NCBI GenBank assembly: GCA_024276935.1
Contig: JAJRWH010000043.1
Location: 5,416 to 69,415 of the forward strand
DNA length: 64,000 bases
Direction of reading: 5' to 3'
Source of the DNA: Deltaproteobacteria bacterium
GTDB lineage: Bacteria > Desulfobacterota > Desulfuromonadia > Desulfuromonadales > Geopsychrobacteraceae
The notes under the pieces were generated by a model. It saw nothing but the letters and a program-made list of their open reading frames with translations. It ran no database searches and was not told the origin of the DNA. Below are positions 36,760 to 62,202 of this stretch, in pieces; the stretch's first letter is position 1, and each line of letters opens with the position of its first letter. A program made the translations under genes and the position numbers.

Positions 36760-36791
36760 CAAGCTGCTTGCCATTGCCACAGAGTCAAAGA

Positions 36792-38249: not shown

Positions 38250-38503
38250 GTCTTCAGCTCTGCCGGATGCATCTGGATGCAGCAGTCCGGAGCTTTCGAC
38301 TTGGGATCGAAGGTGAGGGCAGTCACCACTTGCTGGCCTTTATCGATGTTGTTGAACCTTTGTTGGCCAATGCTTCTGTGACGGAACTTCAGCGGATAAC
38401 GCCGCTACTCAACCAGATTGTTGCTGCCCAGAGTCGGATGGATTTTTTGTGTGTGGCTGACCTGCTCGAATATGAAAATCTGCTCCCCGGATTGCCGGGC
38501 TAA
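38246..38503 (+). CDS. Small helical hypothetical protein between the two maf genes
   Basis: 85 aa (MSLQLCRMHLDAAVRSFRLG...). The ATG overlaps the maf1 stop (ATGA). It ends 13 nt before the maf2 ATG. No recognisable motif. Confidence 0.4.
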   Translation: MSLQLCRMHLDAAVRSFRLGIEGEGSHHLLAFIDVVEPLLANASVTELQRITPLLNQIVAAQSRMDFLCVADLLEYENLLPGLPG

Positions 38504-38516
38504 AAAGGGATATCTG

Positions 38517-41054
38517 ATGCTTAACGAACAGCAGTCAAATGAATTCGTTCAAAACTCTTTTGGGGATCGTTATCTGTTTCGTGTCAATGGCACTGCTTTT
38601 GACAAGATCGGTTCGGCGGCTGTTTATCAGAAACAGTTTGCAGACAAACTCTTCGAAGAGAATCATCTCTACATCATTCTGGGGACCGATTCGGGCCTTC
38701 TGCCGAAGTATCTGCTGCAAAAAGGCCTGCCAAGCGGAAGTACCTATCTGTTTGTTGAGCTTCCCGAAGTCATAGATGTTGTGCGTGCCGAACTCGATCT
38801 GGAGGACTCGGCCAAAAAGTTGTTGCTGACAACATTTGATTGCTGGCAGGAAGAGGCCGTGGCCTTTGAGTTTCAGAATTATGTCTATCTGAACAACATG
38901 GAATTTCATCGTTCCATTGCCGCTGAAGATCTGCATGTCGATGCCTACCAGGGAATAGGCCGTGAGTTACAGGAAGAACTGGAACAGATTCGCTGGATGC
39001 TTCAGGCCGAGATGGGCAGTGAGCTTTTCACCTTGCGCCAGCTGGAAAACCTGGCGGAGAACCGGTTGTCAGCGGCCTGTTTGCGCGGCAGTTTTACCGG
39101 TCGAACGGCTGTGGTTTTAGGGGGAGGGCCATCGCTCGATGACAGTATTTCATGGGTCATTGAGAACCGTGACAGCATGTTGGTGATTGCTGTATCGCGG
39201 ATCTGCCGTCGGCTGCTTGAGGTTGGTCTGATTCCCGATATCGTCGTCTCGATCGATCCCAATCAGATCAGTTATGACATCAGTAAAGAGATGCTGCTGT
39301 TGCATGAGCGGACCATATTTATCAATCAGTATCATGTTTCATCGCGCCTGCTTGGTCAGTGGCGCGGACGAAATTTTTATATGGGGCAGCGTCTTGAATG
39401 GGTTGCCGAAGATCCCGACCAGGCCTTCATCGCCCGGGGGCCGACGGTGACCAACTGTGCGATTGATCTGGCCGTTCAGATCGGGGTTGAACGAATCCTG
39501 CTTGCCGGGGTTGATCTCTGTTTCAGCCGTAAAGGCTTTACCCACGCCCAGGGAAGTAACGAATACGGAATCGGTCCACAACTGGGGACAGGACAGCTTT
39601 GGGTCGAAACCAACAGTGGTGAGATGGCTGAAACAACGGCTGATTTTCATTTTGCAATTTCGACGATTGCCGCACAGGCCACCCAGGCGGCTGAGTCGGG
39701 GTGTCAGTTGATCAATCTGGGTGACTGGTCGGCGCGAATTGATGGTGTCGCCTATGCCGATTGGCGTGATCTGGCCCTAAGCCCACTGCCGCAACCTGCC
39801 TTTGACATGTTGATGGAGTGGTTACCACCCGACAACAGTGAACTGAGGATTGCCCACCAGCAGGCCATGTTGGCAGAACTGGATGTCGCGGCCGGAACCT
39901 TCCGGGAAATCAAAAAACTGGCCCAGGAGGGAATCCGGGCCAATGATGGATTTTTTGGCCGGGTCGCAGGGGGCAAGGGAGAGAAGAAATACAAGGCAAA
40001 ACTGGATCGCATCGAGAAGAAGCTGAAAAAGGGATTCGATGTTTTTACCCCGATGCTCAAAAAGGCCGGAATTCGTGATTTTCTCAAGCTGACTCAGGGC
40101 GAAGGCGCTGACAGCTGGACCTCAGAAGACATTGATCGCCTGGGACGGATCTATTTTGAGGCCTATCGAGACACAGCCGCCAGATTGTTGAAGATGGTCG
40201 AAGCAGCGCAAAAGCGCCTTGAGTCACGGCTGGAAGAAGAGTCTGAATCGCCTGATCTGGCGCAGTGCTTCAGCCAGTGGCAACAAGATCAGCAGCCCGG
40301 TCGTTTCTATCTGTGGCGGCAGCGCAATCCAGACCTGGAAATCCCCCCGGAGCTGTTACCGCAGGTGGCAGAATTTGAGGCGGCATTCAAAAAAGACCTG
40401 GATGATCGCCAGACGATGCATATGGCCCGAGCACAAGCCTGGTCTGAGCTGGGCCCGGTATGTGGCAAGTTGAAGATGATGTATCGGCGGGGCGAGCGGG
40501 AAAATCTGGGTCATCTGGTGGATTGTCTTGACCCCGAGCGCAGTATCGATGAAAAGGCCCTGTTTCATCTGGGCAAAGGTCTGATTGCCGAATTTGATGA
40601 AAAAATTGATACGGCATTGGAGGAATATCGAAACTTGATCGATGCTCTTGCCGAAGAGAAGAAGGGGAGTGTTCTTGAAGAGGGTTTGCTGCGGGTGTTC
40701 TCAATCTCACTGGAGCGGACCGATGCGGAATCTGCCTTGCTGGCCGCCGAGTGCCTGGCTTCGATAGCACCGACCTATCTGCCCTATTACGCAGATATGC
40801 TCAAACTGACTGGCGACAGGGGCAAGGCCCTGGATGTTTATACGGACTATCTTGAGGAGGTTCGCGAAGATTTACCGGTCATGCTGAAGATGGGTTGCCT
40901 TTATATGGAAGCGGGAGTTACCGAAGGCGCAAAGTTGATGTTCGACATGGTGTTGGAACGTGAACCCTGGAATCAGGCCGCGCTGCATTTTTTGGAGACT
41001 CTGGAGCAGAATCAGACCAAAGAAACAGATCTGCAAGAACAGATCGATAACTGA
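38517..41054 (+). CDS. Long Maf (DUF115/MptE-like) protein with C-terminal TPR-like helical region
   Basis: 845 aa. TAVVLGGGPSLDDSISWV, IAVSRICRRLLEVGLIPDIVVSIDPNQ, GPTVTNCAIDLAVQIGVERILLAGVDLCF. The C-terminal roughly 250 aa are helical-repeat-like (ALDVYTDYLEE.., MGCLYMEAGVTEGAKLMFDMVLEREPWNQAAL). Confidence 0.8.
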   Translation: MLNEQQSNEFVQNSFGDRYLFRVNGTAFDKIGSAAVYQKQFADKLFEENHLYIILGTDSGLLPKYLLQKGLPSGSTYLFVELPEVIDVVRAELDLEDSAKKLLLTTFDCWQEEAVAFEFQNYVYLNNMEFHRSIAAEDLHVDAYQGIGRELQEELEQIRWMLQAEMGSELFTLRQLENLAENRLSAACLRGSFTGRTAVVLGGGPSLDDSISWVIENRDSMLVIAVSRICRRLLEVGLIPDIVVSIDPNQISYDISKEMLLLHERTIFINQYHVSSRLLGQWRGRNFYMGQRLEWVAEDPDQAFIARGPTVTNCAIDLAVQIGVERILLAGVDLCFSRKGFTHAQGSNEYGIGPQLGTGQLWVETNSGEMAETTADFHFAISTIAAQATQAAESGCQLINLGDWSARIDGVAYADWRDLALSPLPQPAFDMLMEWLPPDNSELRIAHQQAMLAELDVAAGTFREIKKLAQEGIRANDGFFGRVAGGKGEKKYKAKLDRIEKKLKKGFDVFTPMLKKAGIRDFLKLTQGEGADSWTSEDIDRLGRIYFEAYRDTAARLLKMVEAAQKRLESRLEEESESPDLAQCFSQWQQDQQPGRFYLWRQRNPDLEIPPELLPQVAEFEAAFKKDLDDRQTMHMARAQAWSELGPVCGKLKMMYRRGERENLGHLVDCLDPERSIDEKALFHLGKGLIAEFDEKIDTALEEYRNLIDALAEEKKGSVLEEGLLRVFSISLERTDAESALLAAECLASIAPTYLPYYADMLKLTGDRGKALDVYTDYLEEVREDLPVMLKMGCLYMEAGVTEGAKLMFDMVLEREPWNQAALHFLETLEQNQTKETDLQEQIDN

Positions 41055-41067
41055 AACGGGGTTGCTC

Positions 41068-42582
41068 GTGTGTAAAATCAAAACCATTGAAGAGATCAAG
41101 CCACTGCTCGATGAAGCCCGCAAAGAAGGACGTAAGATTATCCACTGTCACGGGGTTTTCGATCTGCTGCATATCGGGCATATCCGCTATTTTGAACAGG
41201 CGCGGGAGATGGGCGATCTGTTACTGGTCACCCTGACACCTGACCGCTTTGTTGACAAAGGACCGGGGCGTCCGGCCTTTACCGAAGATTTGCGGGCCGA
41301 AAGTATTGCTTCGCTCGATCCGGTCGATTTCGTGGTTATCAACCAGTGGCCGACGGCAGAAGAAACCTTGCGTGTCTTGCGGCCGGATATCTACGTCAAG
41401 GGCTGGGAATTCAAGGAGATTGTCAATGACCCTACCGGCAAGATGGCACTTGAGGCTGAAGTTGTTCGTGAGGTCGGTGCCGAGCTGGCTTTTGCCGGTG
41501 ATATTGTTTTCAGTTCTTCAAACCTGATCAACCGATATTTTTCTCAGCAGCCTGAAGAACTTAAAAGTTATCTCGACCTGTTACGGACCCGGGCCAGTAT
41601 CGAGGGGATCAGCGCGCTGTTTGAGCGCATGGAAAAACTGAAAGTTCTGGTGGTCGGTGATGCCATTCTGGATGCCTACCAGTATTGCGATACGATTGGG
41701 AAATCTTCCAAAGATCCAACCCTGGCCATGAAATATCGTTCAGAAGATCTGTTTGCCGGTGGGGTTTTTGCGGTGGCTAACCATGTGGCCGGATTTGCCC
41801 GTCAGGTCGACCTGTTGACCGTCATCGGTGAGCAGAACTCGCAGGAAGAATTTATTCGCCAGCATCTTCAGCCCAACATTACCCCGACCTTTTTTACTCT
41901 GCCGCAGGCTCCGACTTTGACCAAGCGTCGTTTTATCGATGCCTATTCCCTGAACAAGTTGCTCGAAATCTACGAAATGGACGATTCGGGCCTGCCACCA
42001 GAGCAGACCGAACGCTTCAATGACTGGTTGCGCCAGAGGATTCGTGACTACGATCTGGTTATCGTCGCCGATTTCGGTCATGGCACGATTGCTGACGAAA
42101 CAGTGCGATTGCTGCAAAAGGCCCCCTTTCTGGCGGTCAATACCCAGGCCAATGCCGGAAACCGCGGTTTCAATACCATTGGACGTTATCCAGGGGCCGA
42201 TTTTGGCTGTCTGGCCGAGCATGAACTGCGGCTTGAATACCGTGACATGCGCGGAGATGTGCGTCCCTACCTGCATCATCTGGTCAGACGTTTGGGGGCC
42301 GGGCGTTTCGTCGTCACTCTCGGTCGCCGGGGTTGTGAGGTCTGTAACGCGCGGGGTGAATTTATCAAGGTGCCAACCTTTGCCCGTAACGCTGTAGACC
42401 GGGTCGGAGCCGGTGATGCATTTTTCTCGATCGCTTCGTTGGCCGCCGCTCTGGATGCACCGGATGAAATGATCGCCTTTACCGGCAGTGTTGCCGGTTC
42501 GCTGGCGGTTGAAATTATCGGTAATGAAAAGTCGATTGATCGGATGTCAGCACAGAAATTTGTCACGGCATTGCTGAAATAG
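41068..42582 (+). CDS. Bifunctional sugar-phosphate nucleotidyltransferase (N-term, cytidylyl/adenylyl-transferase fold) / PfkB sugar kinase (C-term); HldE-like with inverted domain order
   Basis: N-terminal IIHCHGVFDLLHIGHIRYFEQA (GxFDxxHxGH nucleotidyltransferase motif). C-terminal VLVVGDAILDAYQYCDTIGKSSKDP...GGVFAVANHVAGF...DRVGAGDAFFS (PfkB/RfaE-I type). Start is GTG 41068 or TTG 41062. Confidence 0.75.
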   Translation: MCKIKTIEEIKPLLDEARKEGRKIIHCHGVFDLLHIGHIRYFEQAREMGDLLLVTLTPDRFVDKGPGRPAFTEDLRAESIASLDPVDFVVINQWPTAEETLRVLRPDIYVKGWEFKEIVNDPTGKMALEAEVVREVGAELAFAGDIVFSSSNLINRYFSQQPEELKSYLDLLRTRASIEGISALFERMEKLKVLVVGDAILDAYQYCDTIGKSSKDPTLAMKYRSEDLFAGGVFAVANHVAGFARQVDLLTVIGEQNSQEEFIRQHLQPNITPTFFTLPQAPTLTKRRFIDAYSLNKLLEIYEMDDSGLPPEQTERFNDWLRQRIRDYDLVIVADFGHGTIADETVRLLQKAPFLAVNTQANAGNRGFNTIGRYPGADFGCLAEHELRLEYRDMRGDVRPYLHHLVRRLGAGRFVVTLGRRGCEVCNARGEFIKVPTFARNAVDRVGAGDAFFSIASLAAALDAPDEMIAFTGSVAGSLAVEIIGNEKSIDRMSAQKFVTALLK

Positions 42583-42599
42583 AGGGTGGAGAATCAGGG

Positions 42600-43631
42600 A
42601 TGATCAACAAACCCGTTTATCGTGAATTTGACCGGAGTCGCCTGCAACTGCAACCTCTGGCGCAACGGCAGCACAAGCTTGATCTGTCGATCCTGTTGCC
42701 GCTTGAGAGGCGCCATTATTTTGGTCCTGACTATCAGGTGCTGGCTGAACGGTTGTTGAGCGCCCGCGAAAATCGGCGGGCCGCAATTTTGATGATGGGG
42801 GCCCATGTGATTCGCTCCGGGGTGCAAACCTATCTGATCGATCTGATGGAGCGGGGGCTGATCAGTGCGCTGGCGATGAATGGTGCCGGGATCATCCATG
42901 ACTATGAACTGGCCCTGATCGGAGCGACAACCGAGTGTGTCGAACGCTACATCAGCAATGGTCAGTTCGGTTTCTGGCAGGAAACCGGGCGTCTCAACTC
43001 TCTTGTCAGCGAAGCGGCCCGAGCCGAAAAAGGACTGGGGGAGGCGGTTGGTGAAATGATTGAAACCGGTGATTTTCCCCATCGCCAGATCAGTCTGGCG
43101 GCTGCGGCCTGGCGGCTGGGTATCCCTTTGACGGTTCATGTCGGGATCGGTCAGGACATTATCCATCAGCATCCAGATTGTGATGGAGCCGCTTTCGGGG
43201 CTTGCAGTTACCGGGATTTCTTGCGGTTTGCGGCCGAACTTGAACGCCTTGAAAAAGGGGTGGTGATGAATTTCGGCAGTGCGGTGATGGCTCCCGAAGT
43301 CTATCTGAAGGCCCTGGCCATGGTGCGAAATGTTGCCCATCAACGTCAGGAGCAGGTGGCCGACTTTACGACCCTGGTTGCCGATCTGCCGCAGTTGCCG
43401 GGCGATTATCACAGTGAACCACGTACTGACGACCCCGCCTACTATTTTCGTCCCTGGAAAACCATGCTGGTACGCACTGTCAAAGATGGCGGGCGCAGCA
43501 TTTATTTACAGGGCCGCCATGCTGAAACAATACCGACCCTCTGGAGCGCCATCGGCGCACTGGAGGACCAGATGAAGGGAGAGTCCCATGACCTGGCAGG
43601 ATCACAGCCGTCTGCTTCAACGTCAGCTTGA
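42600..43631 (+). CDS. Uncharacterised 343-aa protein; N-terminal part resembles the deoxyhypusine-synthase-like NAD-binding fold (tentative)
   Basis: ILMMGAHVIRSGVQTYLIDLMERGLISALAMNGAGIIHDYELALIG is reminiscent of the DHS G-A..G..-I-DL-I..G-vd-l-tGAn-HD layout. The assignment is from memory and is weak. Confidence 0.3.
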   Translation: MINKPVYREFDRSRLQLQPLAQRQHKLDLSILLPLERRHYFGPDYQVLAERLLSARENRRAAILMMGAHVIRSGVQTYLIDLMERGLISALAMNGAGIIHDYELALIGATTECVERYISNGQFGFWQETGRLNSLVSEAARAEKGLGEAVGEMIETGDFPHRQISLAAAAWRLGIPLTVHVGIGQDIIHQHPDCDGAAFGACSYRDFLRFAAELERLEKGVVMNFGSAVMAPEVYLKALAMVRNVAHQRQEQVADFTTLVADLPQLPGDYHSEPRTDDPAYYFRPWKTMLVRTVKDGGRSIYLQGRHAETIPTLWSAIGALEDQMKGESHDLAGSQPSASTSA

Positions 43632-44196
43632 TGCACTACAGATCAGTAAAGGACAGCGTAAATTTATTTTGCCCACGGACGAAGGTTTTGCCCATTGGAC
43701 CGACCGGACCTGTCGGACTGCTCTGACCGGACGTACCGTTTATCTGATCGGTAATGGTGCCAGTGCCTCGATGGCCAGTCACATGGCCGCAGATCTGGCC
43801 AAAAATGCCTATGTTCATACTGAAGTTTTCAGCGATCTGTCGCTGTTGACCGCTATTGCCAATGATATCAGCTACGACGAGGTTTTTGCCGAGCCGCTGC
43901 GCCGCCGTATGGTCCAGGGCGACATGCTGGTTGCCATCAGCAGCAGTGGCAGTTCACCCAATGTTCTGCGGGCTGCCGAAACCGCGCGCAGTATGGGGGG
44001 GTACGTGGTGACTCTGTCGGCAATGCGGGACGACAATCCATTACGTCAGGCGGGCCAGCTTAACCTGTACCTTCCGGCAGACACCTATGGTACAGCCGAA
44101 AGCGGGCATGCTTCTATTTTGCATTTTTGGATGGATCAGGTTGCCGAACGACGAGCCCATCTGGCGGATTCACCGGCGGAAGGAACCCATGGATAA
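43588..44196 (+). CDS. SIS-domain sugar-phosphate isomerase, GmhA (sedoheptulose-7-phosphate isomerase)-like
   Basis: 202 aa. VYLIGNGASASMASHMAADL, DMLVAISSSGSSPNVLRAAETARSMGGYVVTLS, and a His-containing C-terminal segment AESGHASILHFW. Confidence 0.75.
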   Translation: MTWQDHSRLLQRQLDALQISKGQRKFILPTDEGFAHWTDRTCRTALTGRTVYLIGNGASASMASHMAADLAKNAYVHTEVFSDLSLLTAIANDISYDEVFAEPLRRRMVQGDMLVAISSSGSSPNVLRAAETARSMGGYVVTLSAMRDDNPLRQAGQLNLYLPADTYGTAESGHASILHFWMDQVAERRAHLADSPAEGTHG

Positions 44197-45256
44197 GTAT
44201 CGGATCGACAGTCATAAATTGATGTTTCATGTTCCGCGGGTCAATGCCTGGTTGCAGGGAGAGCAGGTTTATCCGCTCTATGCCGAGATCAGTCCGACCG
44301 GAGCCTGCAACCATCGTTGTACTTTCTGCGCTCTTGATTACATGGAGTATCAACCGCGTTATCTGGATGCCGATCTGCTGGCAGAGAGGTTGAAGGAGCT
44401 GGGGCAATTGGGACTGAAGTCGGTGATGTTTGCCGGTGAAGGTGAACCCTTTCTCCATCCCCAGTTGGCGCAGATGGTTGGTGCCGCCAAAACTGCCGGT
44501 ATTGATGTTGCTCTGACCAGTAACGGGGTGTTGATGGATGAAGAGCGGGCCCGCTGGATTCTGCCACAACTCAGCTGGATCAAGGTGAGTATCAACGCTG
44601 GTCGTGCGGCAACCTACAGTGCCATCCACCGCACCAAGGAAAGTGACTTTGCCAAAGTGATCGAGAATTTTCGTCGCGCCGTGAAGTTGCGGACAGAAAA
44701 CAACTGGGATTGCACCATCGGTTTTCAGATGTTGTTGCTGCCGGAAAATCGGGACGAAGCCGCTGATCTGGCTGCGATAGGCCGCGAAATCGGCATCGAT
44801 TATCTGGTGATCAAACCCTATTCACAACACCTGCACAGCCAGACCGAGCAGTACCGCGACACCGATTATTCGGATATTGAAGATCTGCAACAGCAGTTGG
44901 CAGGCTACAGCAATGACCGCTTCAAAGTGCTGGTGCGAGCAGGAACCATGGCCAAATTGAAAGCCGAAAATCCGGCCTATCCGCGCTGTCTGGCCCTGCC
45001 TTTCTGGTCTTACATTGATGCCGGTGGCGGAGTCTGGGGATGCAGTGCTCATCTCGGTGACGAACGGTTTCTGTACGGCAATATCAATCAACAGAGTTTT
45101 GCGCAGATCTGGTCAGGTGAAGCGCGCCAAAAATCATTGGCCTGGGTGGCAGACGAACTTGATACCAGTGGCTGCCGGGTTAACTGCCGGATGGATGAAA
45201 TCAACCGCTACCTGCATGAGCTGAAACACCCCGGTGCTCATGTGAACTTTATTTAG
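44189..45256 (+). CDS. Radical SAM enzyme, paralog 1 of 3
   Basis: CNHRCTFC (CxxxCxxC) at about residue 45, GEGEP glycine-rich motif, C-terminal Cys cluster (CSAHLG..GCRVNCRMDE), tail HVNFI. ATG 44189 overlaps the stop of the SIS gene. Confidence 0.8.
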   Translation: MDKYRIDSHKLMFHVPRVNAWLQGEQVYPLYAEISPTGACNHRCTFCALDYMEYQPRYLDADLLAERLKELGQLGLKSVMFAGEGEPFLHPQLAQMVGAAKTAGIDVALTSNGVLMDEERARWILPQLSWIKVSINAGRAATYSAIHRTKESDFAKVIENFRRAVKLRTENNWDCTIGFQMLLLPENRDEAADLAAIGREIGIDYLVIKPYSQHLHSQTEQYRDTDYSDIEDLQQQLAGYSNDRFKVLVRAGTMAKLKAENPAYPRCLALPFWSYIDAGGGVWGCSAHLGDERFLYGNINQQSFAQIWSGEARQKSLAWVADELDTSGCRVNCRMDEINRYLHELKHPGAHVNFI

Positions 45257-45266
45257 GATCTCATCG

Positions 45267-45869
45267 ATGGCACGTCGTATCGGGATCGATTTTGACAATA
45301 CTCTGGTCTGTTACGACCGGTTGTTCCTTCAGTTGGCACAGGAGGAGGGCCACGCCCTGCCAACCAACCTGGGGGGGAAAACCGCCCTGCGTGACTGGTT
45401 GCGGTTGCAGCCAGCAGGAGAAATCGCCTGGCAACGCTTGCAGGCTCAGGCCTATGGCCCGCGAATAACCGAGGCCAGCCTGTTTGAGGGGGTGGAAGAG
45501 ATTCTGAGTGTCTGGCACCAGCGCGGCGATCAGTTGTTTGTGGTCAGTCACAAATCACTTTATGCCGCCCAGGATCAGGAAGGGGTCAATCTTCAGCAGG
45601 CGGCGCGAAACTTTTTGGAACAGAGCGGCCTGTTTGAACGTCAGTTGCTGAATGTGGAACAGGTTTATTTTGAACAAAGCCGTCAGGCAAAGGTTGCACG
45701 AATTGCCGAGCTTGGTTGCGAGATATTTATTGATGATCTGGTGGAAACGTTTGCCGAGCAAGGCTTTCCACAAGGGGTTCGACAAATCCTTTTCGGTGAG
45801 TGTTTATCGCCGCCTGATGGTATCGAATGCTGCCGCAGCTGGCAGGAGATCGGGCGGGTTCTGGAATAA
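45267..45869 (+). CDS. HAD-superfamily phosphatase
   Basis: N-terminal IGIDFDNTL (DxDxT motif I), VVSHKS (motif II-like), and a late IFIDD acidic motif. 200 aa. Confidence 0.7.
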   Translation: MARRIGIDFDNTLVCYDRLFLQLAQEEGHALPTNLGGKTALRDWLRLQPAGEIAWQRLQAQAYGPRITEASLFEGVEEILSVWHQRGDQLFVVSHKSLYAAQDQEGVNLQQAARNFLEQSGLFERQLLNVEQVYFEQSRQAKVARIAELGCEIFIDDLVETFAEQGFPQGVRQILFGECLSPPDGIECCRSWQEIGRVLE

Positions 45870-45874
45870 ATGGA

Positions 45875-46864
45875 ATGGAAAAAGAATTGAACCAGGTGCT
45901 GCAAAAAGAACTGCAAGATCCTCTCTTGCGTTGTTCAGTCGTCGAACAGGGGGGAAACAGTCAGGCTGTGCTGGTCAGCAGTCCGCGGCATGGTGAATTG
46001 CTGGTCAAGCGATATATCGCTGATGGTCGTAAACGGCTCGAAACCGAATATGCTGCGCTGAAATTTCTGTCTCAAAATGGTTTGCCGGTTGCCCGGCCCC
46101 TGTTGGCGCGCCCCGCAGAAAACTATGCAGTTTACAGCCGTCTGCCGGGGACTCTTCCTGACCCGGAAAAGGTCGACCAGCATCTTGTGCAACTGCTCGA
46201 TTTTCTGCGTCGGTTACATGGTTTCAGGAAGGAACTGCGCGATTTCCCTCCAGCGGCTGAGGCCTGCTTGTGTGCCGGGGAGACCCTGGCACTGGTGAAG
46301 AAACGGCGGCAACAATTGAACGCCGTAGCGGATGATGCCTTGCAGAATTTTTTAACCCGCAAGTTCGACCCCTGTTGCCAGCGATTATGCGAGGTTTTTC
46401 AGACTGCGGCAGCTTCAACCCTGGACGTCGAACTTTCTGATGGGCAGCAGACTCTGAGCCCCTCGGATTTTGGTTTACACAATGCACTCTGTTGTCCTGA
46501 GGGGCAGCTTGCGTTTGTTGATTTCGAATATTTCGGACGTGATGATCCGGCCAAGCTGGTCAGTGATTTTCTCTGGCATCCTGCAATGCAATTGTCCGCC
46601 AGATTCAAGACTGATTTTCTTCAGGGTTGCCGCAGGATTTATGGAGAGGAGTTTTATCAGCGTTTCCAGCAGGCCCACCCGCTCCATGGCCTGAAATGGG
46701 TTCTGCTGCTCCTGAATGAGTTTTTGCCGCACCATTGGCAGCGACGGCGTTTTGCCGGAGAGAAAATGTCTCGGCAACAACGCCAGCAAAACCAACTTGA
46801 AAAAGCGCAGAGTTTGCTGGCGCGAATTGAATTGCTGGAGAAAGGAACCACCGATGCAAATTGA
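45875..46864 (+). CDS. APH/choline-kinase-fold phosphotransferase (possible sugar kinase)
   Basis: 329 aa. Catalytic-loop type SPSDFGLHNALCCPEGQLAFVDFEYFGRDDP (D..N ... DFE). ATG 45875. Confidence 0.65.
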   Translation: MEKELNQVLQKELQDPLLRCSVVEQGGNSQAVLVSSPRHGELLVKRYIADGRKRLETEYAALKFLSQNGLPVARPLLARPAENYAVYSRLPGTLPDPEKVDQHLVQLLDFLRRLHGFRKELRDFPPAAEACLCAGETLALVKKRRQQLNAVADDALQNFLTRKFDPCCQRLCEVFQTAAASTLDVELSDGQQTLSPSDFGLHNALCCPEGQLAFVDFEYFGRDDPAKLVSDFLWHPAMQLSARFKTDFLQGCRRIYGEEFYQRFQQAHPLHGLKWVLLLLNEFLPHHWQRRRFAGEKMSRQQRQQNQLEKAQSLLARIELLEKGTTDAN

Positions 46865-47675
46865 TCCGCTCAAAACGCCCCTCGATCGCAGATCGCGTGA
46901 ACTGAGGCACCAGATGGTGCGGATGATGGAAGAAGCCGGGCGTGGCCATCTGGCTTCGGCATTTTCGCTGGTCGAGATTCTACGGGTTCTCTATGACGAT
47001 ATTTTACGCATAGATCCGTCCCGGCCTGATTGGCCGCAGCGTGACCGCTTGATTCTCAGCAAGGGACACGGCTGTATGGCCCTTTATGTGATGTTGGCCG
47101 AACGGGGGTTTTTCCCCGAATCGGCGTTGTGGGATTTCTGTAAACCGGGCGGTTTGCTCGGGGGACATCCCGAACACAAGGTGCCGGGGGTTGAGGCCTC
47201 GACCGGCAGTCTGGGACATGGCCTTTCTTTTGGGGTTGGTTTTGCCCTTAATGCCCGGATGGATGACAGCCCGGCTCGTACTTATGTGGTTGTTGGCGAT
47301 GGGGAATGCAATGAAGGTTCAGTGTGGGAGGCGGCGATGGCGGCGGCCAAACACCAGCTGGCAAATCTCTGTGTGCTGGTTGACTGCAACAAACTGCAAT
47401 CCTACGGGCCGACAGCCGATATCCAGAATCTTGATCCCTTCGCCGACAAGTGGCGGGCCTTCGGTTTTGAGGTCAACGAAGTCGATGGTCATGATCTGGT
47501 GGCGTTGCGACAGCTGCTGGAGCGCCCGCCGGGGAGACAGCCGCGGACGATCATCTGCCACACCGTCAAAGGCAAGGGGATTCCCGAGGTTGAAAATAAT
47601 CTGGCCTGGCATCACAAGAGTAAATTGCCGACCGAAAAACTGGCTGAACTTTATCAGGCGCTGGAGGAGAACTGA
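46854..47675 (+). CDS. Transketolase, N-terminal (TPP-binding) subunit
   Basis: GHLASAFSLVEIL, LSKGHGCMALY, TGSLGHGLSFGVGFAL, VVVGDGECNEGSVWEAAMAA. The start overlaps the kinase stop by 11 nt. Confidence 0.9.
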   Translation: MQIDPLKTPLDRRSRELRHQMVRMMEEAGRGHLASAFSLVEILRVLYDDILRIDPSRPDWPQRDRLILSKGHGCMALYVMLAERGFFPESALWDFCKPGGLLGGHPEHKVPGVEASTGSLGHGLSFGVGFALNARMDDSPARTYVVVGDGECNEGSVWEAAMAAAKHQLANLCVLVDCNKLQSYGPTADIQNLDPFADKWRAFGFEVNEVDGHDLVALRQLLERPPGRQPRTIICHTVKGKGIPEVENNLAWHHKSKLPTEKLAELYQALEEN

Positions 47676-48595
47676 TGCGACAGACCTGTCTTGATACGGT
47701 TTATCAACTGGCCCGGCAGGACGAACGGGTGGTCTTTATCGGTTCTGATCTTGGTGAAGGAACTTTGGCAGATTTCCGGCGTGAGATCCCTCAGCGGTTC
47801 TTCATGGAGGGGATCAGCGAGGCCAATATTCTGACCATGGCGGCAGGGCTGGCCATGAATGGCAAAATCCCCTACGTCAATACCATCGCGCCTTTTCTGA
47901 CCCGACGGGCCTACGAGCAGATTCTGCTCGATCTTTGTCTGCACCGGGTCAATGTGAGGCTCCTCGGCAATGGCGGTGGCATGGTCTACGCCCCGCTCGG
48001 CCCGACTCATATGGTGATTGAGGATCTGGCGGCACTGCGCGCAATCCCCGGAATGACAATTCTTGCGCCTGCCGATGCTGAAGAGATGCAGCGGCTGATG
48101 CGATTGACGACCGATTATCAGGGGCCGATCTATGTGCGTTTCGGTAAAGGGTTTGATCCGGTGGTCAGCCAGGCCGAACAGCCGGTTGTCATTGGCAAAG
48201 CCGTCACCTACGCCAGCGGGAACGATCTGTTGCTGATTTCGACCGGAATCACTTTGAAACTGGTTCTTGAAGCCGCCGAGAACCTGCAAAATCAAGGTGT
48301 TTCGACCGCGATTCTGCATTACCACAGTATCAAGCCCTTCGATACAGAAAGTCTTCTTGCCCGGGCCGCGCAGGTTCGGGCGGTGATTACGGTCGAAGAG
48401 CATTCGGTGATTGGCGGGTTGGGCGGCGCGGTTGCCGAAACATTACTCGAAGCGGATCTGGCCAGGGTGCCAAAATTCAGGCGGATCGGGGTGCCAGATC
48501 AATTCCCGGAGGATTATGGTTCGCAGGCCCATTTGATGAACAGCTTCGGGATCTGTAGTGAAAACATTATTGCCCAGGCACAGGCCATGCTCTGA
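47675..48595 (+). CDS. Transketolase, C-terminal (pyrimidine-binding) subunit
   Basis: FFMEGISEANILTMAAGLAMNGKIPYVNTIAPFLT, IRAIPGMTILAPADAEE. ATG overlaps the upstream stop (TGATG). Confidence 0.9.
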   Translation: MRQTCLDTVYQLARQDERVVFIGSDLGEGTLADFRREIPQRFFMEGISEANILTMAAGLAMNGKIPYVNTIAPFLTRRAYEQILLDLCLHRVNVRLLGNGGGMVYAPLGPTHMVIEDLAALRAIPGMTILAPADAEEMQRLMRLTTDYQGPIYVRFGKGFDPVVSQAEQPVVIGKAVTYASGNDLLLISTGITLKLVLEAAENLQNQGVSTAILHYHSIKPFDTESLLARAAQVRAVITVEEHSVIGGLGGAVAETLLEADLARVPKFRRIGVPDQFPEDYGSQAHLMNSFGICSENIIAQAQAML

Positions 48596-48621
48596 GATAT
48601 TTGGGATAAAGGATTTCAGTG

Positions 48622-49488
48622 ATGAAAAAATTACTGCTACTCGGTGGTAGCGGCAAGCTGGGAACAGCGATTAATCAGGTTTTCTCCCCGCAGTGGACGA
48701 TAAAATCCCTGACTTCACAGGATTTTGATGCGGCAAATCCTGAATCACTGCTGCCGCAGTTGAGTGATTTTCACCCTGATCTGATCGTCAACTGTGTGGC
48801 TTACCTGGGGATCGATCCCAGTGAGGCCGACCCCCAGGCAGCATTTCGGCTCAATGCTCTGCTGCCGCGTTACCTGGCGGAACTGGCCGAGAAATACAGC
48901 TGTCCGCTGGTCCATTTCAGCAGTGATGCGGTGTTCAGCGGTGCGAAGAAAACCATTTTGAGCGAGCAGGATTGTCCTGATCCGGTCAACCTTTACGGCA
49001 TCACCAAGCTGGCCGGAGACCATCTGGTTGCTGCCGTGACACCCCGGCACTATATCCTTCGTATTTCGCTTCTGTTTGGTGCCAGCAGCAAGCAGAACCA
49101 GTTTGTCGAAAAGATGCTCGAACGGGTTCGCAAGGGGCAGGCAGAATTGCAGATTGCCGCTGATATTGTTGCTTCACCCAGTTATGCCCCAGATATTGCG
49201 CGACAATTATTCAATATCATTGAAGAAAAACGACCCTGGGGACTTTACCATGTTGCGAATGATGGCCAGGCGTCGTTGTTTGACCTGATGAAGGAACTTT
49301 GTCGGCTCTGTGCTCCGCAGGTCAGGGTTCAGGCCGCGTCCCACCATGACTTTGCCGCAGTTGGGCGTAAAAATGATTTTACCCCGCTTTGTTCAGTCAA
49401 ACTGAATGCCTTGCGCCCCTGGCAGGAGGCCCTGGTCGATTATGTGGCAACCCTCGATATGAGCCCTCAGACAGGGGGAAAGGATTAA
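48622..49488 (+). CDS. RmlD-like NAD(P)-dependent sugar reductase (dTDP-4-dehydrorhamnose reductase family)
   Basis: MKKLLLLGGSGKLGTAI, HFSSDAVFSG, YGITKLAGDHLV (YxxxK). 288 aa. Confidence 0.7.
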   Translation: MKKLLLLGGSGKLGTAINQVFSPQWTIKSLTSQDFDAANPESLLPQLSDFHPDLIVNCVAYLGIDPSEADPQAAFRLNALLPRYLAELAEKYSCPLVHFSSDAVFSGAKKTILSEQDCPDPVNLYGITKLAGDHLVAAVTPRHYILRISLLFGASSKQNQFVEKMLERVRKGQAELQIAADIVASPSYAPDIARQLFNIIEEKRPWGLYHVANDGQASLFDLMKELCRLCAPQVRVQAASHHDFAAVGRKNDFTPLCSVKLNALRPWQEALVDYVATLDMSPQTGGKD

Positions 49489-49489
49489 T

Positions 49490-50578
49490 ATGAAGAACGG
49501 CAAATTACAGATGGAAGGTTCGAAACTTCTTTGGCACCTTGACCGTGTGACCCAATGGCAAGAGGGAGAACGGGTTGCGCCACTGCATATCGATGTCGGT
49601 TTGAGCAAAAGTTGCAATATCCGTTGTGAATACTGTTTCGGTTCGATGCAGGGCAATCGTTTTGTTACCAAAGATCCCCGCGCTTTTCCCCGCGAGGCGC
49701 TGCTGCGTTATGTCGAAGATGCCGGTGCGATCGGGGTGCGTTCGATGGCCTTTATCGGTGAAGCCGAACCTTTGCTGAACCCGGCGGTTTACGAGGCAAT
49801 TGTCGCCGGGAAAAAAGCCGGGGTCGACATTGCCCTGGGAAGCAACGGGATTCTGTATGAGATGTCACCTGCTGGTGAAGAGGCACTCGAATATTTGACC
49901 TGGCTGCGTTTCAATATCAGTGCCGCCAGTGCCGAAGGCTACAAGAGGATTCACAACAGTGATGATTTTGAAACAGCACTGCAAAAGATTCGCTACTGTG
50001 TCGGTATCAAGCGGCAGAAAAATCTCGATGTGACCATCGGTTTACAGATGGTTCTGACGCCGAGCAATCGTGATCAGGTGGTGGGGTTGGCGAAGCTGGG
50101 CCGTGAACTCGGGGTTGATTACCTGGTGGTCAAACAGTGCAGCGATACCCCGGACAGCACTCTTGGAATTTATGATCACTTGAAGGAATACCGTGATTTT
50201 AACGAGTTGTTACAGGAAGCCGAGGCCCAGGCGACCGATGACTACAAGGTTATCATCAAATGGAACATGATCGAAAACGAGGGTGCTCGTCATTACGATG
50301 TCTGCTATGCACCACCTTTTCTGCTCTATTCGAGCGGTGACGGCAAGCTTTTCCCCTGTGGGGCCTTTTTCGATCATCGGGCCGATGAATTCTGCATGGG
50401 TGATCTGGTCGAACAATCTTTTCGTCAGATTATCGAGAGCGACCGCTATTGGGACGTCGTTGAGCGGGTCAAGCAGCTCGACGTTCATTGCGACTGTTAT
50501 TCGAACTGCCGTTCGCACTTCGTTAATGATTTTCTGTGGCAGGTCAAACATCCGCCGCAGCATGTCAATTTTATCTGA
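49490..50578 (+). CDS. Radical SAM enzyme, paralog 2 of 3
   Basis: CNIRCEYC, GEAEP, FNISAASAEGYKRIH, C-terminal Cys cluster (CGAFFDH..HCDCYSNCRSHF), tail HVNFI. The N-terminal SKLLWHLDRV is shared with paralog 3. Confidence 0.8.
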   Translation: MKNGKLQMEGSKLLWHLDRVTQWQEGERVAPLHIDVGLSKSCNIRCEYCFGSMQGNRFVTKDPRAFPREALLRYVEDAGAIGVRSMAFIGEAEPLLNPAVYEAIVAGKKAGVDIALGSNGILYEMSPAGEEALEYLTWLRFNISAASAEGYKRIHNSDDFETALQKIRYCVGIKRQKNLDVTIGLQMVLTPSNRDQVVGLAKLGRELGVDYLVVKQCSDTPDSTLGIYDHLKEYRDFNELLQEAEAQATDDYKVIIKWNMIENEGARHYDVCYAPPFLLYSSGDGKLFPCGAFFDHRADEFCMGDLVEQSFRQIIESDRYWDVVERVKQLDVHCDCYSNCRSHFVNDFLWQVKHPPQHVNFI

Positions 50579-50598
50579 AAAGACAAAGGATTGCTGTA

Positions 50599-51663
50599 AT
50601 GGATGACAGCTATAAAATGTCCGGCCACAAACTTTTATGGCACCTTGACCGGGTTCACGACTGGGCCGAAGGCAAGCAGATCGCACCGCTCTATCTCGAT
50701 ATGGGGATCACCCAGTCGTGTAATGTTGCCTGCAAGTACTGTTATTATGCGACACCTGAAAATCGCACCGACAAGATTATTCCGACCCCTGCTCTGATCC
50801 GCTTTCTCGGCGACTGTGCCGACATGGGAGTCAAGGCGATCGGGTTTCTTGGTGATGGTGAACCGATGCTTCATCCCGGGGTTTATGAGGCGGTCACTGC
50901 CGGGGCTGATTGCGGGCTGGATATGGCGATCTCGACCAACGGTGTGGTGATGAAAGAAGAGGGCCTGCTTGAATTTCTGCGTGCCCTGACCTGGATCCGG
51001 TTCAATATCAGTGCCGCTGACGCCAGCAAGTATGAGCAGATCATGGGAGTGCCGCCGTCGGTTTTCGACAAGGTGGTCGCCCATATCAAAGCCTGTGTCG
51101 AATTGAAAAAGCGCTTCAAACTGGAGGTAACCATCGGTATGCAGATGGTTCTGATCGCTGACTGTGTTGATCAGATTGTCGACTATGCCAGGTTGGGCAA
51201 GGAGCTGGGTGTTGATTATGTGGTGATCAAGCAGTGCTCGGAAAGTGGTGAGGTTGGCCGGGGCAATGCGGTGACCGATATTGCCCCCCTGGAAGAGGTG
51301 ATGCAAAAAGCGGAATCCCTCGCCAATGAGAACTATCGGGTGATCATTAAGCGCCGCAAGATGGAGTACAATCAGCGGACCTATGACCATTGTTACGGGT
51401 GCGAATTTTTACCGCAGATCAACGGAGCCGGTGAGGTTTACTGCTGCGGAAATTTCTTCGGCAACCCGGAGTTTTATATCGGCAACCTCTGCGAGGAATC
51501 GTTCCGGGATATTGTCTTTGGCGAACGTTACCGGCAGGTGATGGACCAGGTCAAGCAGCAGGTCGATGTGCAAACCATGTGCGGTGAGAAGTGCCGTCAG
51601 AACGAAATCAACGAATTTCTCTGGTCGTTGAAAAATCCTCCAGACCATCTCAACTTCATCTGA
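50599..51663 (+). CDS. Radical SAM enzyme, paralog 3 of 3
   Basis: CNVACKYC, GDGEP, FNISAADASKYEQIM, C-terminal Cys cluster (CCGNFFGN..MCGEKCRQNE), tail HLNFI. ATG 50599. Confidence 0.8.
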   Translation: MDDSYKMSGHKLLWHLDRVHDWAEGKQIAPLYLDMGITQSCNVACKYCYYATPENRTDKIIPTPALIRFLGDCADMGVKAIGFLGDGEPMLHPGVYEAVTAGADCGLDMAISTNGVVMKEEGLLEFLRALTWIRFNISAADASKYEQIMGVPPSVFDKVVAHIKACVELKKRFKLEVTIGMQMVLIADCVDQIVDYARLGKELGVDYVVIKQCSESGEVGRGNAVTDIAPLEEVMQKAESLANENYRVIIKRRKMEYNQRTYDHCYGCEFLPQINGAGEVYCCGNFFGNPEFYIGNLCEESFRDIVFGERYRQVMDQVKQQVDVQTMCGEKCRQNEINEFLWSLKNPPDHLNFI

Positions 51664-51707: not shown

Positions 51708-51708
51708 G

Positions 51709-54314: not shown

Positions 54315-55028
54315 TTAACTCTGTTGGTTGATGAGTAGTTCGGCCAGTTGAAAATCGAGCAGGCTGTCGATATCGACCGAACGTTCAGCAGGCATGATCA
54401 GGGCGTGGGTGCGGGGGCCGATAAAGCCTTGCTGTTGTTGCAATGACGAGATTTCTGCCAGGTAGATAGCACCGTTCAAACGATAATAGGGTGGTAGTTG
54501 CTGGCGATTGCAGTTTCGGACTTCGGGACGTAAAAAATCAGCCATGTTGCCATTTTCAGGAAGACCGTTGCTCCACCAGGGGTGATGATCGCAAGTTGTC
54601 ACCGAAACGATGGCTTCGGCATTCCGGTTTTGCATGAGCTGAAACGCAGCAGCAATGTCTGTGGCACAGCGTAACGGAGATGTTGGTTGTAGTAGCAGAA
54701 TCTGCTCATATTCTTCTCCCCGGTCAGTAGCTTGCTGAAGGCAGTGTTGAATCACCTCAAAACTGCTTGCCGTGTCTCTGGCCAGTTCGGTTGGGCGCAA
54801 TGCCGGCACCCGTGCACCGTGGGAACGTGCAATAGCCGCAATTTCCTCCGAGTCAGTGCTGACCTCGATCTGGGTCAGGCCAGCCTTACGCGCCGCGTCA
54901 ATACTCCAGGCCAGCAGTGGTTTTCCTGCCAGGGGGCGGGTATTTTTTCCTGGCAGTCCCTTACTGCCCGCCCGAGCTGGAATCAGGACCAGAGTTTTTT
55001 TGGATTCAGAAATCGAAAGCATCGTCAT
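54315..55028 (-). CDS. neuA: CMP-nonulosonate synthetase (acylneuraminate cytidylyltransferase family; LegF-like)
   Basis: LIPARAGSKGLPGKNTRPLAGKPLLAWSI. 237 aa. Confidence 0.85.
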   Translation of the reverse strand: MTMLSISESKKTLVLIPARAGSKGLPGKNTRPLAGKPLLAWSIDAARKAGLTQIEVSTDSEEIAAIARSHGARVPALRPTELARDTASSFEVIQHCLQQATDRGEEYEQILLLQPTSPLRCATDIAAAFQLMQNRNAEAIVSVTTCDHHPWWSNGLPENGNMADFLRPEVRNCNRQQLPPYYRLNGAIYLAEISSLQQQQGFIGPRTHALIMPAERSVDIDSLLDFQLAELLINQQS

Positions 55029-58230: not shown

Positions 58231-58235
58231 CGCGG

Positions 58236-60983: not shown

Positions 60984-61032
60984 AGAGTTCTCCTGTTGGA
61001 TCATAGTCATTTGAGAAGACAAGGGCGGGACA

Positions 61033-61061
61033 ATAATATGACACACTCTACATCCTGCCAA
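61033..61061 (-). promoter_or_regulatory. Sigma70-like promoter for the minus-strand nonulosonate operon
   Basis: Minus strand reads TTGGCA-N17-TATTAT (plus-strand TGCCAA 61056-61061 and ATAATA 61033-61038). Confidence 0.45.
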
Positions 61062-62090: not shown

Positions 62091-62120
62091 AATCATCCAG
62101 CGCACAAAATATAGTTTTGC

Positions 62121-62155
62121 GGCAGGAGCAATAAGTTGTTCCTGCCGTTTTTTTA
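62121..62155 (+). terminator. Rho-independent terminator after flagellin gene 1
   Basis: CGGCAGGA (62121-62128) / TCCTGCCG (62141-62148) stem followed by TTTTTTT. Confidence 0.8.
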
Positions 62156-62174
62156 TGAAAAATAAATTTTTTCT

Positions 62175-62202
62175 TAAAGAAGGATGTTTCGAAAGCCGAT
62201 AA
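62175..62202 (+). promoter_or_regulatory. Sigma28 promoter of flagellin gene 2
   Basis: TAAA-N16-GCCGATAA (perfect -10), located about 125 nt upstream of the ATG at 62329. Confidence 0.7.

Follow-up and report, generated by a model that had tools for sequence, protein, structure and literature searches.

Flagellin glycosylation by Maf transferases is understood almost wholly through two nonulosonates, pseudaminic acid (Pse) and legionaminic acid (Leg). Maf islands with Pse or Leg have been described from Campylobacter, Aeromonas, Magnetospirillum and Geobacillus, and they resemble the locus studied here in that Maf, Leg operon and flagellin stand side by side. A different sugar, ADP-L-glycero-beta-D-manno-heptose, is made by GmhA, HldE, GmhB and HldD, a pathway represented in Geobacter sulfurreducens by GSU2084-GSU2087. 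We analyzed a stretch of 64,000 nucleotides (the window) of contig JAJRWH010000043.1 from a deltaproteobacterium of the Geopsychrobacteraceae (assembly GCA_024276935.1), in which a block of eleven + strand genes (41068-51663) lies within a genuine Maf/Leg flagellin glycosylation island. Judged by the families of its enzymes, the block most likely encodes an uncharacterised pathway to a nucleotide-activated, heavily tailored heptose-type sugar. It shares with the ADP-heptose pathway an isomerase, a PfkB kinase and a cytidylyltransferase-like nucleotidyltransferase (NT), and it joins to them a split transketolase (TK), an APH-fold kinase, a HAD phosphatase and three radical S-adenosylmethionine (rSAM) genes.

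The row in G. sulfurreducens comprises gmhB (GSU2084), hldE (GSU2085), a "hypothetical protein in sugar biosynthesis operon" (GSU2086), gmhA (GSU2087) and a family-2 glycosyltransferase (GSU2088); the transposon sequencing (Tn-seq) phenotypes of GSU2085, GSU2086 and GSU2087 are alike, and lptA and other cell-envelope genes stand in the same table (PMC5585712, PMC3495685). Genes 1-3 of the block correspond to the hldE-GSU2086-gmhA stretch of this heptose operon, the GSU2086-family gene likewise lying between the hldE-like and the gmhA-like gene. In the open reading frame (ORF) listing and a greedy gene call, the whole block appears as eleven co-directional ORFs, neighbours being separated, or overlapping, by no more than a few tens of bases. 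All eleven of the tightly packed ORFs named in a preliminary description of this DNA exist, and their coordinates agree with inspection of start codons and ribosome-binding sites (likely starts, 44189 for rSAM1 and 50599 for rSAM3). Pfam and NCBIfam profile searches confirmed the family of each, and the calls made there (SIS, PfkB/NT, HAD, APH, TK, RmlD and rSAM) held throughout; the protein at 42600, left there as unknown, is a member of the GSU2086 family. The block reads as follows, with thiamine diphosphate abbreviated as ThDP.

41068..42582, + strand: HldE-like bifunctional enzyme with reversed domain order (CTP_transf_like, aa 28-117; PfkB, aa 192-485)
42600..43631, + strand: GSU2086-family protein (NF052581, 381 bits vs cut-off 250)
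43588..44196, + strand: GmhA-like SIS sugar-phosphate isomerase (Pfam SIS_2, 1.9e-15)
44189..45256, + strand: rSAM1, radical SAM protein with a short, Cys-poor SPASM/twitch-like C-terminus (Pfam Radical_SAM, 3.6e-21, and SPASM)
45267..45869, + strand: predicted HAD-superfamily phosphatase of a non-GmhB family (weak Pfam HAD match, PF12710)
45875..46864, + strand: predicted APH-fold small-molecule kinase of an uncharacterised subfamily (Pfam APH, 1.6e-13)
46854..47675, + strand: TK-like N-terminal (ThDP/PP-domain) subunit, TK-N (Pfam Transketolase_N, 4.4e-42)
47675..48595, + strand: TK-like C-terminal (Pyr and C) subunit, TK-C (Pfam Transket_pyr and Transketolase_C)
48622..49488, + strand: predicted RmlD-like NAD(P)H-dependent sugar-nucleotide ketoreductase (Pfam RmlD_sub_bind, 8.5e-60)
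49490..50578, + strand: rSAM2, radical SAM/SPASM protein (Pfam Radical_SAM and SPASM)
50599..51663, + strand: rSAM3, radical SAM/SPASM protein and last gene of the block (Pfam Radical_SAM and SPASM)

Hereafter, the HAD, APH kinase and split TK genes together are called the cassette, and related loci carry L numbers.

Genes 1-3 (41068-44196) most likely form an ADP-heptose-type starter unit, and the heptose-type logic of the preliminary description stands: among NCBIfam models, the kinase and NT domains match those of HldE best (rfaE_dom_I, 98 bits; rfaE_dom_II, 94 bits; other families, at most 46 bits), the isomerase is GmhA-like, and the three genes mirror the G. sulfurreducens operon. The closest solved kinase to the PfkB domain (2.1e-14) is the heptose-7-phosphate kinase HldA of Burkholderia (4e84), to which 'DRVGAGDAF' with its GAGD anion-hole motif aligns; the CTP_transf_like domain (5e-14) carries an HxGH-type motif in the form 'LLHIGH'. 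The name HldE-like thus fits the kinase and NT content but not the domain order, since the NT (HIGH motif) precedes the PfkB kinase (GAGD motif), the reverse of E. coli HldE and of the NF008454 model, residues 6-117 aligning to positions 324-437 of the latter. The fusion remains below the NCBIfam equivalog cut-offs (NF008454, 152.7 vs 521; TIGR02198, 98.4 vs 345; TIGR02199, 94.2 vs 181.5). The reversed family counts at least 7000 proteins, with PF01467 before PF00294 in all 119 full-length sequences among 120 listed, and the names that NCBI gives to these homologues are generic, not HldE. Thirteen of the 15 best solved matches of the isomerase are phosphoheptose isomerases, the other two being the related DiaA. 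It retains the motifs SxSGxSxN and LTAIxND, and 'SSSGSSPN' and 'LLTAIANDISYDEVF' align to phosphoheptose isomerases; its scores are under the GmhA equivalog cut-offs of NCBIfam (best, 69.1 bits vs 320; TIGR00441, 68 vs 209).

The GSU2086 protein matches NF052581 over positions 1-300 of 301 (381.1 bits vs 250). Foldseek searches with its AlphaFold model (mean predicted local distance difference test score [pLDDT], 85.5) returned deoxyhypusine synthase, LOR/SDH and the ArgZ C-domain at template modeling (TM) scores of ~0.5, and it is probably an NAD-binding enzyme with a deoxyhypusine-synthase-like fold. The family has at least 7972 homologues; those sampled are ~60% identical, and ~80 positions never vary among 29 diverse members. 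A more distant branch (35-44% identity) shows no linkage to HldE-like genes. The nearest named homologues of the GSU2086 and HldE-like proteins come from Thermodesulfobacteriota or from metagenome-assembled genomes (MAGs) labelled 'Deltaproteobacteria', and the starter unit appears to be the version of the ADP-heptose operon that belongs to Geobacter-like and Thermodesulfobacteriota bacteria. Sequence comparison with solved structures yielded nothing significant for the GSU2086 protein or for the HAD and APH proteins of the cassette, and profile searches gave only weak matches.

The split TK combines a canonical N-terminal subunit with a C-terminal subunit whose motif is altered. TK-N matches the N chain of a split TK (6yak, 5.5e-74), and, aligned with 6yak and human TK, it retains counterparts of H26, H66, H100, the GDG...N motif and H261. 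The closest solved relative of TK-C is the split TK of Carboxydothermus hydrogenoformans (6yaj, 6e-57), in which THAGLTVGEDGASHQ stands where the window and 48 of the 51 other cassette homologues (49/52) have GNGGGxVYAPLGPTH. The canonical His461 and Asp469 are absent from all 52, being replaced by Gly and Leu, respectively; residue numbers are those of E. coli TK, which we take to be transferable through the spacing H461...D469...H473. TK-C keeps the catalytic, ThDP-activating E411, as well as H473 and the phosphate binders R358, S385 and R520, and its N-terminal MRK motif, whose Arg is the R358 equivalent, is conserved. In E. coli TK, Asp469 senses the hydroxyl at C2 of the acceptor, the same group as that at C4 of the donor, and for this reason the cassette TK is predicted to be a distinct, ThDP-competent subfamily with a changed substrate pocket and not a spare TK of the pentose phosphate pathway. 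A second TK subtype, also without the canonical His461 and Asp469, has the motif GVGxGLSYAxLGATHH and occurs in L084 (11411-12355), L088 and L129 (15107-16075), where the order is TK-N, TK-C, HAD, APH and the same starter triad is present.

Among 32 homologues of the HAD protein, the catalytic motifs (DxDxT, Ser, Lys and DD) show no variation, and the nearest solved structures by profile are phosphoserine phosphatase and MtnX, both weak; an NCBIfam search at E ≤ 1e-3 assigned no family, the GmhB and histidinol-phosphatase-type models remaining unmatched. The APH kinase had no match in the NCBIfam search, and none of its 3277 homologues bears a specific functional name. Its AlphaFold model (mean pLDDT, 94.9) is matched best in Foldseek by choline kinases (LicA; TM, 0.63-0.73), with aminoglycoside kinases close behind. 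Single-protein HAD::APH fusions of 520-575 aa exist in L011, L023, L030 and L132 (10001-11590), and since the two are fused in several lineages, they should act on the same molecule.

All three rSAM proteins contain the CxxxCxxC motif (CNHRCTFC in rSAM1, CNIRCEYC in rSAM2, CNVACKYC in rSAM3), with SPASM scores of 24-27 bits against a cut-off of 21.5. They are paralogues of 32-44% identity (rSAM2 vs rSAM3, 44%), and every NCBIfam match was far under the family cut-off. The C-terminus has only 4 Cys in rSAM1 and 7 in rSAM3 and is Cys-rich in rSAM2; from this count, rSAM1 may bind one auxiliary cluster. The slot of rSAM1, between SIS and HAD, is filled by a short-chain dehydrogenase/reductase (SDR) in L002, L084 and L085, related clusters of aerobic lineages also having an SDR there, and homologues of rSAM1 itself (44-60% identity) occur in Chlorobi, Desulfovibrio-type and other loci. 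GalE, 4,6-dehydratase and heptose-epimerase models were all under their cut-offs for the SDR of the related clusters. The RmlD-like reductase reaches 202.7 bits in Pfam and 196.5 bits with TIGR01214 (cut-off, 224), and a neighbouring rSAM-RmlD pair recurs in L002, L028, L050, L081, L087, L130 and L132. We also considered that the three rSAM/SPASM genes might serve a ribosomally synthesized and post-translationally modified peptide; this reading was rejected, as no precursor-like gene is evident, the operon is one of sugar enzymes and the homologues pair with RmlD-like reductases.

The block is found again elsewhere. L001, an NCBI assembly (GCA_024276905.1), has the same gene order at ~90% amino-acid identity, and two independent metagenome contigs (L002 and L132) have it at 34-67% identity; there, the Maf and Pse genes are followed by HldE-like, GSU2086, SIS, SDR or rSAM, HAD, APH, TK-N, TK-C, methyltransferase, rSAM and RmlD genes. 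Since the order recurs in these three loci, and in part across many phyla, the arrangement is not due to chance. Downstream of the module, L132 (16336-18611) carries an NTP_transferase::GmhB-like fusion (HddC::GmhB) and a GHMP kinase of the HddA type, a GDP-heptose set that shows heptose chemistry to be central to such islands. A scan anchored on the APH kinase, in a collection of one genome per species, found the cassette in at least 562 places, among them Verrucomicrobiota, Acidobacteriota, Alpha-, Beta- and Gammaproteobacteria, Chlorobi, Leptospira, Planctomycetes, cyanobacteria, Omnitrophota and a Woesearchaeote. In the 47 of these genome loci with full 10-kb flanks, HAD is present in 47/47, TK in 46/47, an SDR in 41/47, the reversed HldE-like fusion in 39/47 and SIS in 29/47, with both SIS and the HldE-like gene missing in 6/47; a NeuB homologue accompanies the cassette in 7/47, flagellin in 3/47 and Maf in 0/47. 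Common accessory genes elsewhere are methyltransferases (including C-methyltransferases), a PhyH-type dioxygenase, a Zn-alcohol dehydrogenase and a WbuC cupin, and in L007 a gene of the GT9 heptosyltransferase family adjoins the cassette.

We favour, tentatively, a model of two-carbon transfer onto an ADP-heptose-derived keto intermediate, carried out by two nested units plus anaerobic tailoring. The genes, their families, the state of their motifs, their synteny and its recurrence are observed; the substrates and products are all inferred. By homology, unit 1 (41068-44196) would convert sedoheptulose 7-phosphate to an ADP-activated heptose. rSAM1 would make the keto intermediate, or epimerise it, independently of NAD, which is probable because related clusters have an SDR in its slot. 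In unit 2 (45267-48595), the split TK would move a ketol (glycolaldehyde) C2 unit from a ketose phosphate to the carbonyl of the sugar intermediate and thus give a chain-extended or C-branched heptose, the order of steps being uncertain. The kinase and the phosphatase might put a phosphate on and take it off again, or else supply the donor and remove a by-product. By analogy, rSAM2 or rSAM3 and the RmlD-like reductase could bring about a deoxygenation, that is, a radical dehydration followed by ketoreduction, and the product would decorate the two flagellins of the island beside Leg. A bolder version, in which the variant TK, the choline-kinase-fold kinase and HAD form a widespread C2-adding cassette for C9 or C-glycolyl-branched heptoses, the product being a second flagellin glycan beside Leg and GSU2086 a new enzyme of heptose metabolism, seems to us rather doubtful.

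Four observations argue that C2 transfer follows activation. A ThDP enzyme is present in all 11 loci sampled via the GSU2086 protein, but it is not always a TK: nine loci have a TK, one (L003) has E1 alpha/beta and one (L085) an acetolactate synthase (ALS)-like enzyme of 856 aa, with two aminotransferases. The metagenome scan with GSU2086 was restricted by peptide patterns and returned mostly short contigs and the distant branch. E1-like and ALS-like types (YerE, AviB1/B2) add pyruvate-derived C2 units to nucleotide-linked keto-sugars, and to our knowledge they cannot yield a ketose phosphate that could be isomerised to an aldose; L003 and L085 nevertheless contain the same starter triad, with no APH or HAD. 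Furthermore, the starter proteins resemble those of the window to the same degree in L084, which has a TK, as in L085, which has none (NT-kinase fusion, 62% vs 61%; SIS, 55% vs 55%), and therefore the starter substrate would be independent of the TK. The G. sulfurreducens operon works without a TK, and elsewhere the cassette has an SDR before it and tailoring genes for nucleoside diphosphate (NDP)-keto-sugars after it, in the order SDR-HAD-APH-TK amid genes for C-methyltransferases, WbuC cupin and RmlD. The private TK of the preliminary description, thought to supply a ketose phosphate to the pathway, is therefore not favoured; the Gly461/Leu469 subfamily, the E1-like and ALS-like substitutes and the equal similarity of the starter genes all speak against it.

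Several points weigh against C2 transfer onto an activated heptose. We know of no TK that acts on a nucleotide-linked keto-sugar, all those known to us using free sugar phosphates, and the precedents for C2 branching (YerE and AviB1/B2) come from other ThDP families. That the phosphate-binding residues are kept, and that a kinase and a phosphatase are present, fits free sugar phosphate chemistry, although the residues would also serve the donor; the model does not convincingly account for the kinase/phosphatase pair. The reversed HldE-like paralogue is a close companion of the cassette (39/47 loci). The NCBIfam and Pfam searches found no GmhB-family phosphatase among the eleven genes, and the HldE, GmhA and RmlD scores are all below the NCBIfam equivalog cut-offs, because of which the specificity of the enzymes may differ from that of heptose enzymes. 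The GDP-heptose set of L132 raises doubt as to what the HldE-like fusion activates there. A methyltransferase partner, found in 46 of 84 loci with the window counted, is missing from the block, and the 860-aa glycosyltransferase-like neighbour described below has no homologue in the module loci tested except L001. The claim that the pathway is self-contained is likewise unproven, as the block lacks a GmhB-family phosphatase and its HAD gene keeps company with the APH kinase, not with the HldE-like gene.

The preliminary description had instead proposed a linear route after the logic of lincosamide GDP-octose synthesis, in which the kinase acts on a free aldose, TK yields a C7 or C8 ketose phosphate, SIS isomerises it, PfkB phosphorylates at C1, HAD removes the terminal phosphate and the NT activates the sugar before rSAM/RmlD tailoring of the NDP-sugar. 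It has a role for all seven enzymes and a precedent in LmbR/N/P/K/O. The TK keeps every ThDP/donor residue and the phosphate-binding R358, S385 and R520, and Leu in place of D469 suits an acceptor without a D-configured 2-hydroxyl, as known from D469 variants of E. coli TK; the HAD::APH fusions suit installation and removal of the same phosphate, and the reversed HldE-like paralogue stands beside the cassette in the same 39 loci. However, an isomerisable ketose phosphate is impossible in L003 and L085, where the triad is joined to E1-like or ALS-like enzymes and APH and HAD are absent; the starter genes are as close to those of the window with TK as without it, and the G. sulfurreducens triad runs with gmhB and without TK. 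Moreover, 18/47 cassette loci lack SIS, 6/47 lack it together with the HldE-like gene, and the order SDR-HAD-APH-TK amid NDP-keto-sugar tailoring genes does not agree with a TK at the start. The weighing of four points for and four against leads us to rank C2 transfer onto an activated heptose above this linear route, which we regard as unlikely, if still a serious competitor.

It is also imaginable that the block makes no sugar donor of its own and serves to decorate legionaminic acid, or the glycan, with a substituent, either a sugar-derived acyl or alkyl group or a phospho-alcohol from a Kennedy-type CDP-alcohol, made by the choline-kinase-like APH protein and the ethanolamine-phosphate-cytidylyltransferase-like domain. 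Indeed, in structure the APH model is matched best by choline/ethanolamine kinases, and the best solved-sequence match of the NT domain is an ethanolamine-phosphate cytidylyltransferase, but the Foldseek scores of choline and aminoglycoside kinases are close, and by profile the NT domain fits HldE domain II (94 bits) far better than glycerol-3-phosphate cytidylyltransferase (34 bits). The module lies beside a NeuB-type synthase or a full Pse/Leg operon in the window, L002, L028, L050, L051, L059, L081, L087, L130 and L132, and in L002 and L132 the recognisable glycosyltransferases are Maf only, bar a faint GT1 match on the PseF-like fusion of L132. Against this stand the low count of NeuB homologues (only 7/47 full-length cassette loci) and L013, L017 and L024, in which the cassette adjoins flagellin and a tetratricopeptide repeat (TPR)-GT41 gene, with nonulosonate genes none; the PfkB and SIS parts would also be left without a role. 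On balance, we consider such a substituent improbable. Still further from our expectation is the possibility that genes 1-3 are housekeeping ADP-heptose genes for the lipopolysaccharide (LPS) core that lie in a flagellar region by chance, the rest being an unrelated polysaccharide cassette. The G. sulfurreducens homologues do stand in an operon with gmhB and a GT2 gene, with mutually similar Tn-seq phenotypes in the table that also holds lptA, and the GSU2086 family is very large and conserved. The triad, however, is in one tight co-directional string with the cassette, 14 bp after Maf2; the same string follows Maf/Pse genes in L002 and L132, with only 57-67% identity in L002. A ThDP enzyme and tailoring genes accompany the triad in 11/11 sampled loci, and the window is without LPS core genes, which makes coincidence very improbable indeed.

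The surroundings of the block include FlgK and FlgL, and further Maf1 and Maf2, a minus-strand gene for an 860-aa glycosyltransferase (GT)-like protein, a legionaminic-acid operon and two flagellin genes, as follows.

36966..38249, + strand: Maf1, MptE-like (Maf-type) putative flagellin glycosyltransferase of 427 aa (Pfam MptE-like, 4.5e-34), upstream of and co-directional with the block
38418..41054, + strand: Maf2, long MptE-like protein of 878 aa (Pfam MptE-like, 5.2e-44), ending 14 bp before the block
51709..54291, - strand: 860-aa protein with two Glyco_trans_1_2 (GT-B-like) stretches (Pfam, 5.3e-29), convergent on the block
54315..61061, - strand: legionaminic-acid operon with CMP-synthetase, PtmE-like CBS-nucleotidyltransferase, NeuC-type 2-epimerase, NeuB-type synthase, NeuD-type acetyltransferase, LegC and LegB (Pfam, NCBIfam)
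61269..63153, + strand: two short tandem flagellin genes of 273 and 295 aa (Flagellin_N and Flagellin_C domains)

MptE-like genes, a nonulosonate pathway and flagellin genes, which together mark a Maf-type flagellin glycosylation island, thus occur in one locus. The Leg enzymes exceed their NCBIfam cut-offs (LegB, 506 bits > 475; LegC, 527 > 420; NeuB_NnaB, 503 > 400; NeuC, 462 > 236). Maf1, with a weak NCBIfam match to PseD, is 80% identical to its counterpart in L001 and 44% in L002, and homologues of Maf2 (830-845 aa) precede the same module in L001, L002 and L132. A small ORF lies between the maf genes (38153-38503; 116 aa in its longest reading, 85 aa as called in L001), and its equivalent in L002 is a 92-aa gene with a weak DUF8042 match. 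Judged from L001, the stretch between flgL and maf1 (36000-36900) carries csrA and fliW on the + strand; a longer ORF antisense to them (36235-36864) is probably spurious. The two flagellins (61269-63153) are the presumed glycosylation targets. In both, the helical domains of the N- and C-termini are joined with hardly any variable middle domain between them, and glycosylation sites, if there are any, must fall in a very short linker. The ORF and Pfam survey found no LPS core genes in the window, an Rfam scan of the entire window gave zero matches, and in a promoter/terminator scan of 35900-52000 the matches were not above chance, so that the operon limits are not defined by that scan.

The preliminary description had tied the block to maf and flagellin genes. 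This connection recurs in several independent loci: Maf adjoins the module in the window, L001, L002 and L132, and other neighbours of the module are FliD/FliS (L129), flagellin (L130) and fliF-I (L082), with a rod gene at a distance of ~5 kb in L131. It does not extend to the cassette in general, however, since Maf is present in 0/80 APH-anchored genome loci and flagellar genes within 10 kb in 4/80. Because most copies sit elsewhere, the cassette is not specific to the flagellum; it is a general glycan-tailoring unit that several lineages recruited to flagellin glycosylation. In three alphaproteobacterial MAGs, a TPR plus GT41 (OGT-like) protein of 915-996 aa is encoded beside flagellin and the cassette (L013, 16192-19182; L017, 16244-18991; L024, 17358-20210), and nonulosonate genes are absent from these loci. 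They may represent a type of flagellin glycosylation distinct from both the Maf and the FlmG systems, in which the cassette product is used. In the window, Maf2, Maf1 and the 860-aa GT-like protein are candidate transferases, the last being speculative: it had no NCBIfam match, and BLASTP revealed no repeat between its halves. As a general partner of the module this protein was rejected, its homologue being found only in L001 among 84 loci (L001-L083 and the window).

Further combinations were seen next to the module. In L087 (534-2429) and L130 (4732-6615), a NeuB-type synthase is fused to AP_endonuc_2, a xylose-isomerase-like TIM barrel (627-631 aa), with a C2185-like_N protein before it and the module downstream. 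The Desulfovibrio-type loci L028, L050 and L051 have a lone NeuB homologue directly before the HldE-like gene and no other Pse/Leg genes within 10 kb. In L129, genes with sulfotransferase domains (11204-11902 and 5373-6611) are interleaved with the starter triad adjacent to fliD/fliS, which hints at a sulfated glycan in that lineage.

Several consequences would follow if these readings are true. A heptose-type pathway in Maf islands, and in TPR-GT41 flagellin loci without nonulosonates, would widen the chemistry of flagellar glycans, and with a C2-adding cassette the bacterial sugars would gain a new class, higher-carbon (C9) or C-glycolyl-branched. As no product is assigned to the cassette, thousands of genes could be annotated once one example is solved; the GSU2086 family, large and part of the Geobacter heptose operon, has no assigned function. 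rSAM enzymes in slots held elsewhere by SDRs or dioxygenases offer a test case for how anaerobic and aerobic enzymes replace each other in sugar tailoring. Neither the cassette nor the Gly461/Leu469 TK subfamily is described in the literature that we searched, nor is a heptose-type pathway within a Maf island; the preliminary description likewise knew of no such characterised flagellin glycan route.

Compared with known systems, the block would work in the manner of an ADP-heptose pathway to which a ThDP-dependent C2 step and anaerobic tailoring have been added, but by the tests above its enzymes fall outside the HldE, GmhA and GmhB equivalog families and the canonical TKs. From the ADP-heptose pathway it differs in the domain order, reversed with respect to E. 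coli HldE, in scores below cut-off and in having neither a GmhB-family phosphatase nor an HldD-type SDR. With the lincomycin route to GDP-D-erythro-alpha-D-gluco-octose (LmbR, LmbN, LmbP, LmbK and LmbO) it shares the logic of extender, isomerase, anomeric kinase, phosphatase and NT, and here the likeness drawn in the preliminary description ends: the block has a TK (C2) and not a transaldolase (C3), PfkB and not a GHMP kinase, a cytidylyltransferase-like NT and not an NTP_transferase guanylyltransferase, and an extra APH kinase. Unlike in that route, an extender that acts first is not favoured by the evidence. In the clusters of YerE (yersiniose) and AviB1/AviB2 (avilamycin eurekanate), a ThDP enzyme likewise belongs to sugar-nucleotide tailoring and lies near dehydratase/oxidase and ketoreductase genes, and sister clusters of the block have an ALS-like (YerE-type) or E1 alpha/beta (AviB-type) enzyme in place of the TK; the split TK of the block, in contrast, would move a dihydroxyethyl (glycolaldehyde) unit from a ketose and not hydroxyethyl from pyruvate. 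The split TK of C. hydrogenoformans (PDB 6yaj/6yak) has the same two-subunit build and the same ThDP/donor residues, but its motif is the canonical THAG...GEDG instead of GNGGG...APLG. The pairing of an rSAM enzyme with an NAD(P)H reductase on a sugar has a parallel in AprD4/AprD3 (C3' deoxygenation of apramycin), and BtrN, an rSAM dehydrogenase, may illustrate how rSAM1 could stand in for an NAD-dependent SDR in an anaerobe; the kinship of the block's rSAM proteins to AprD4 and BtrN is at the level of the superfamily. The known Maf islands, finally, deal in nonulosonates and their N-acyl variants, and to this repertoire the window adds a predicted heptose-type pathway with TK, APH, HAD and rSAM enzymes.

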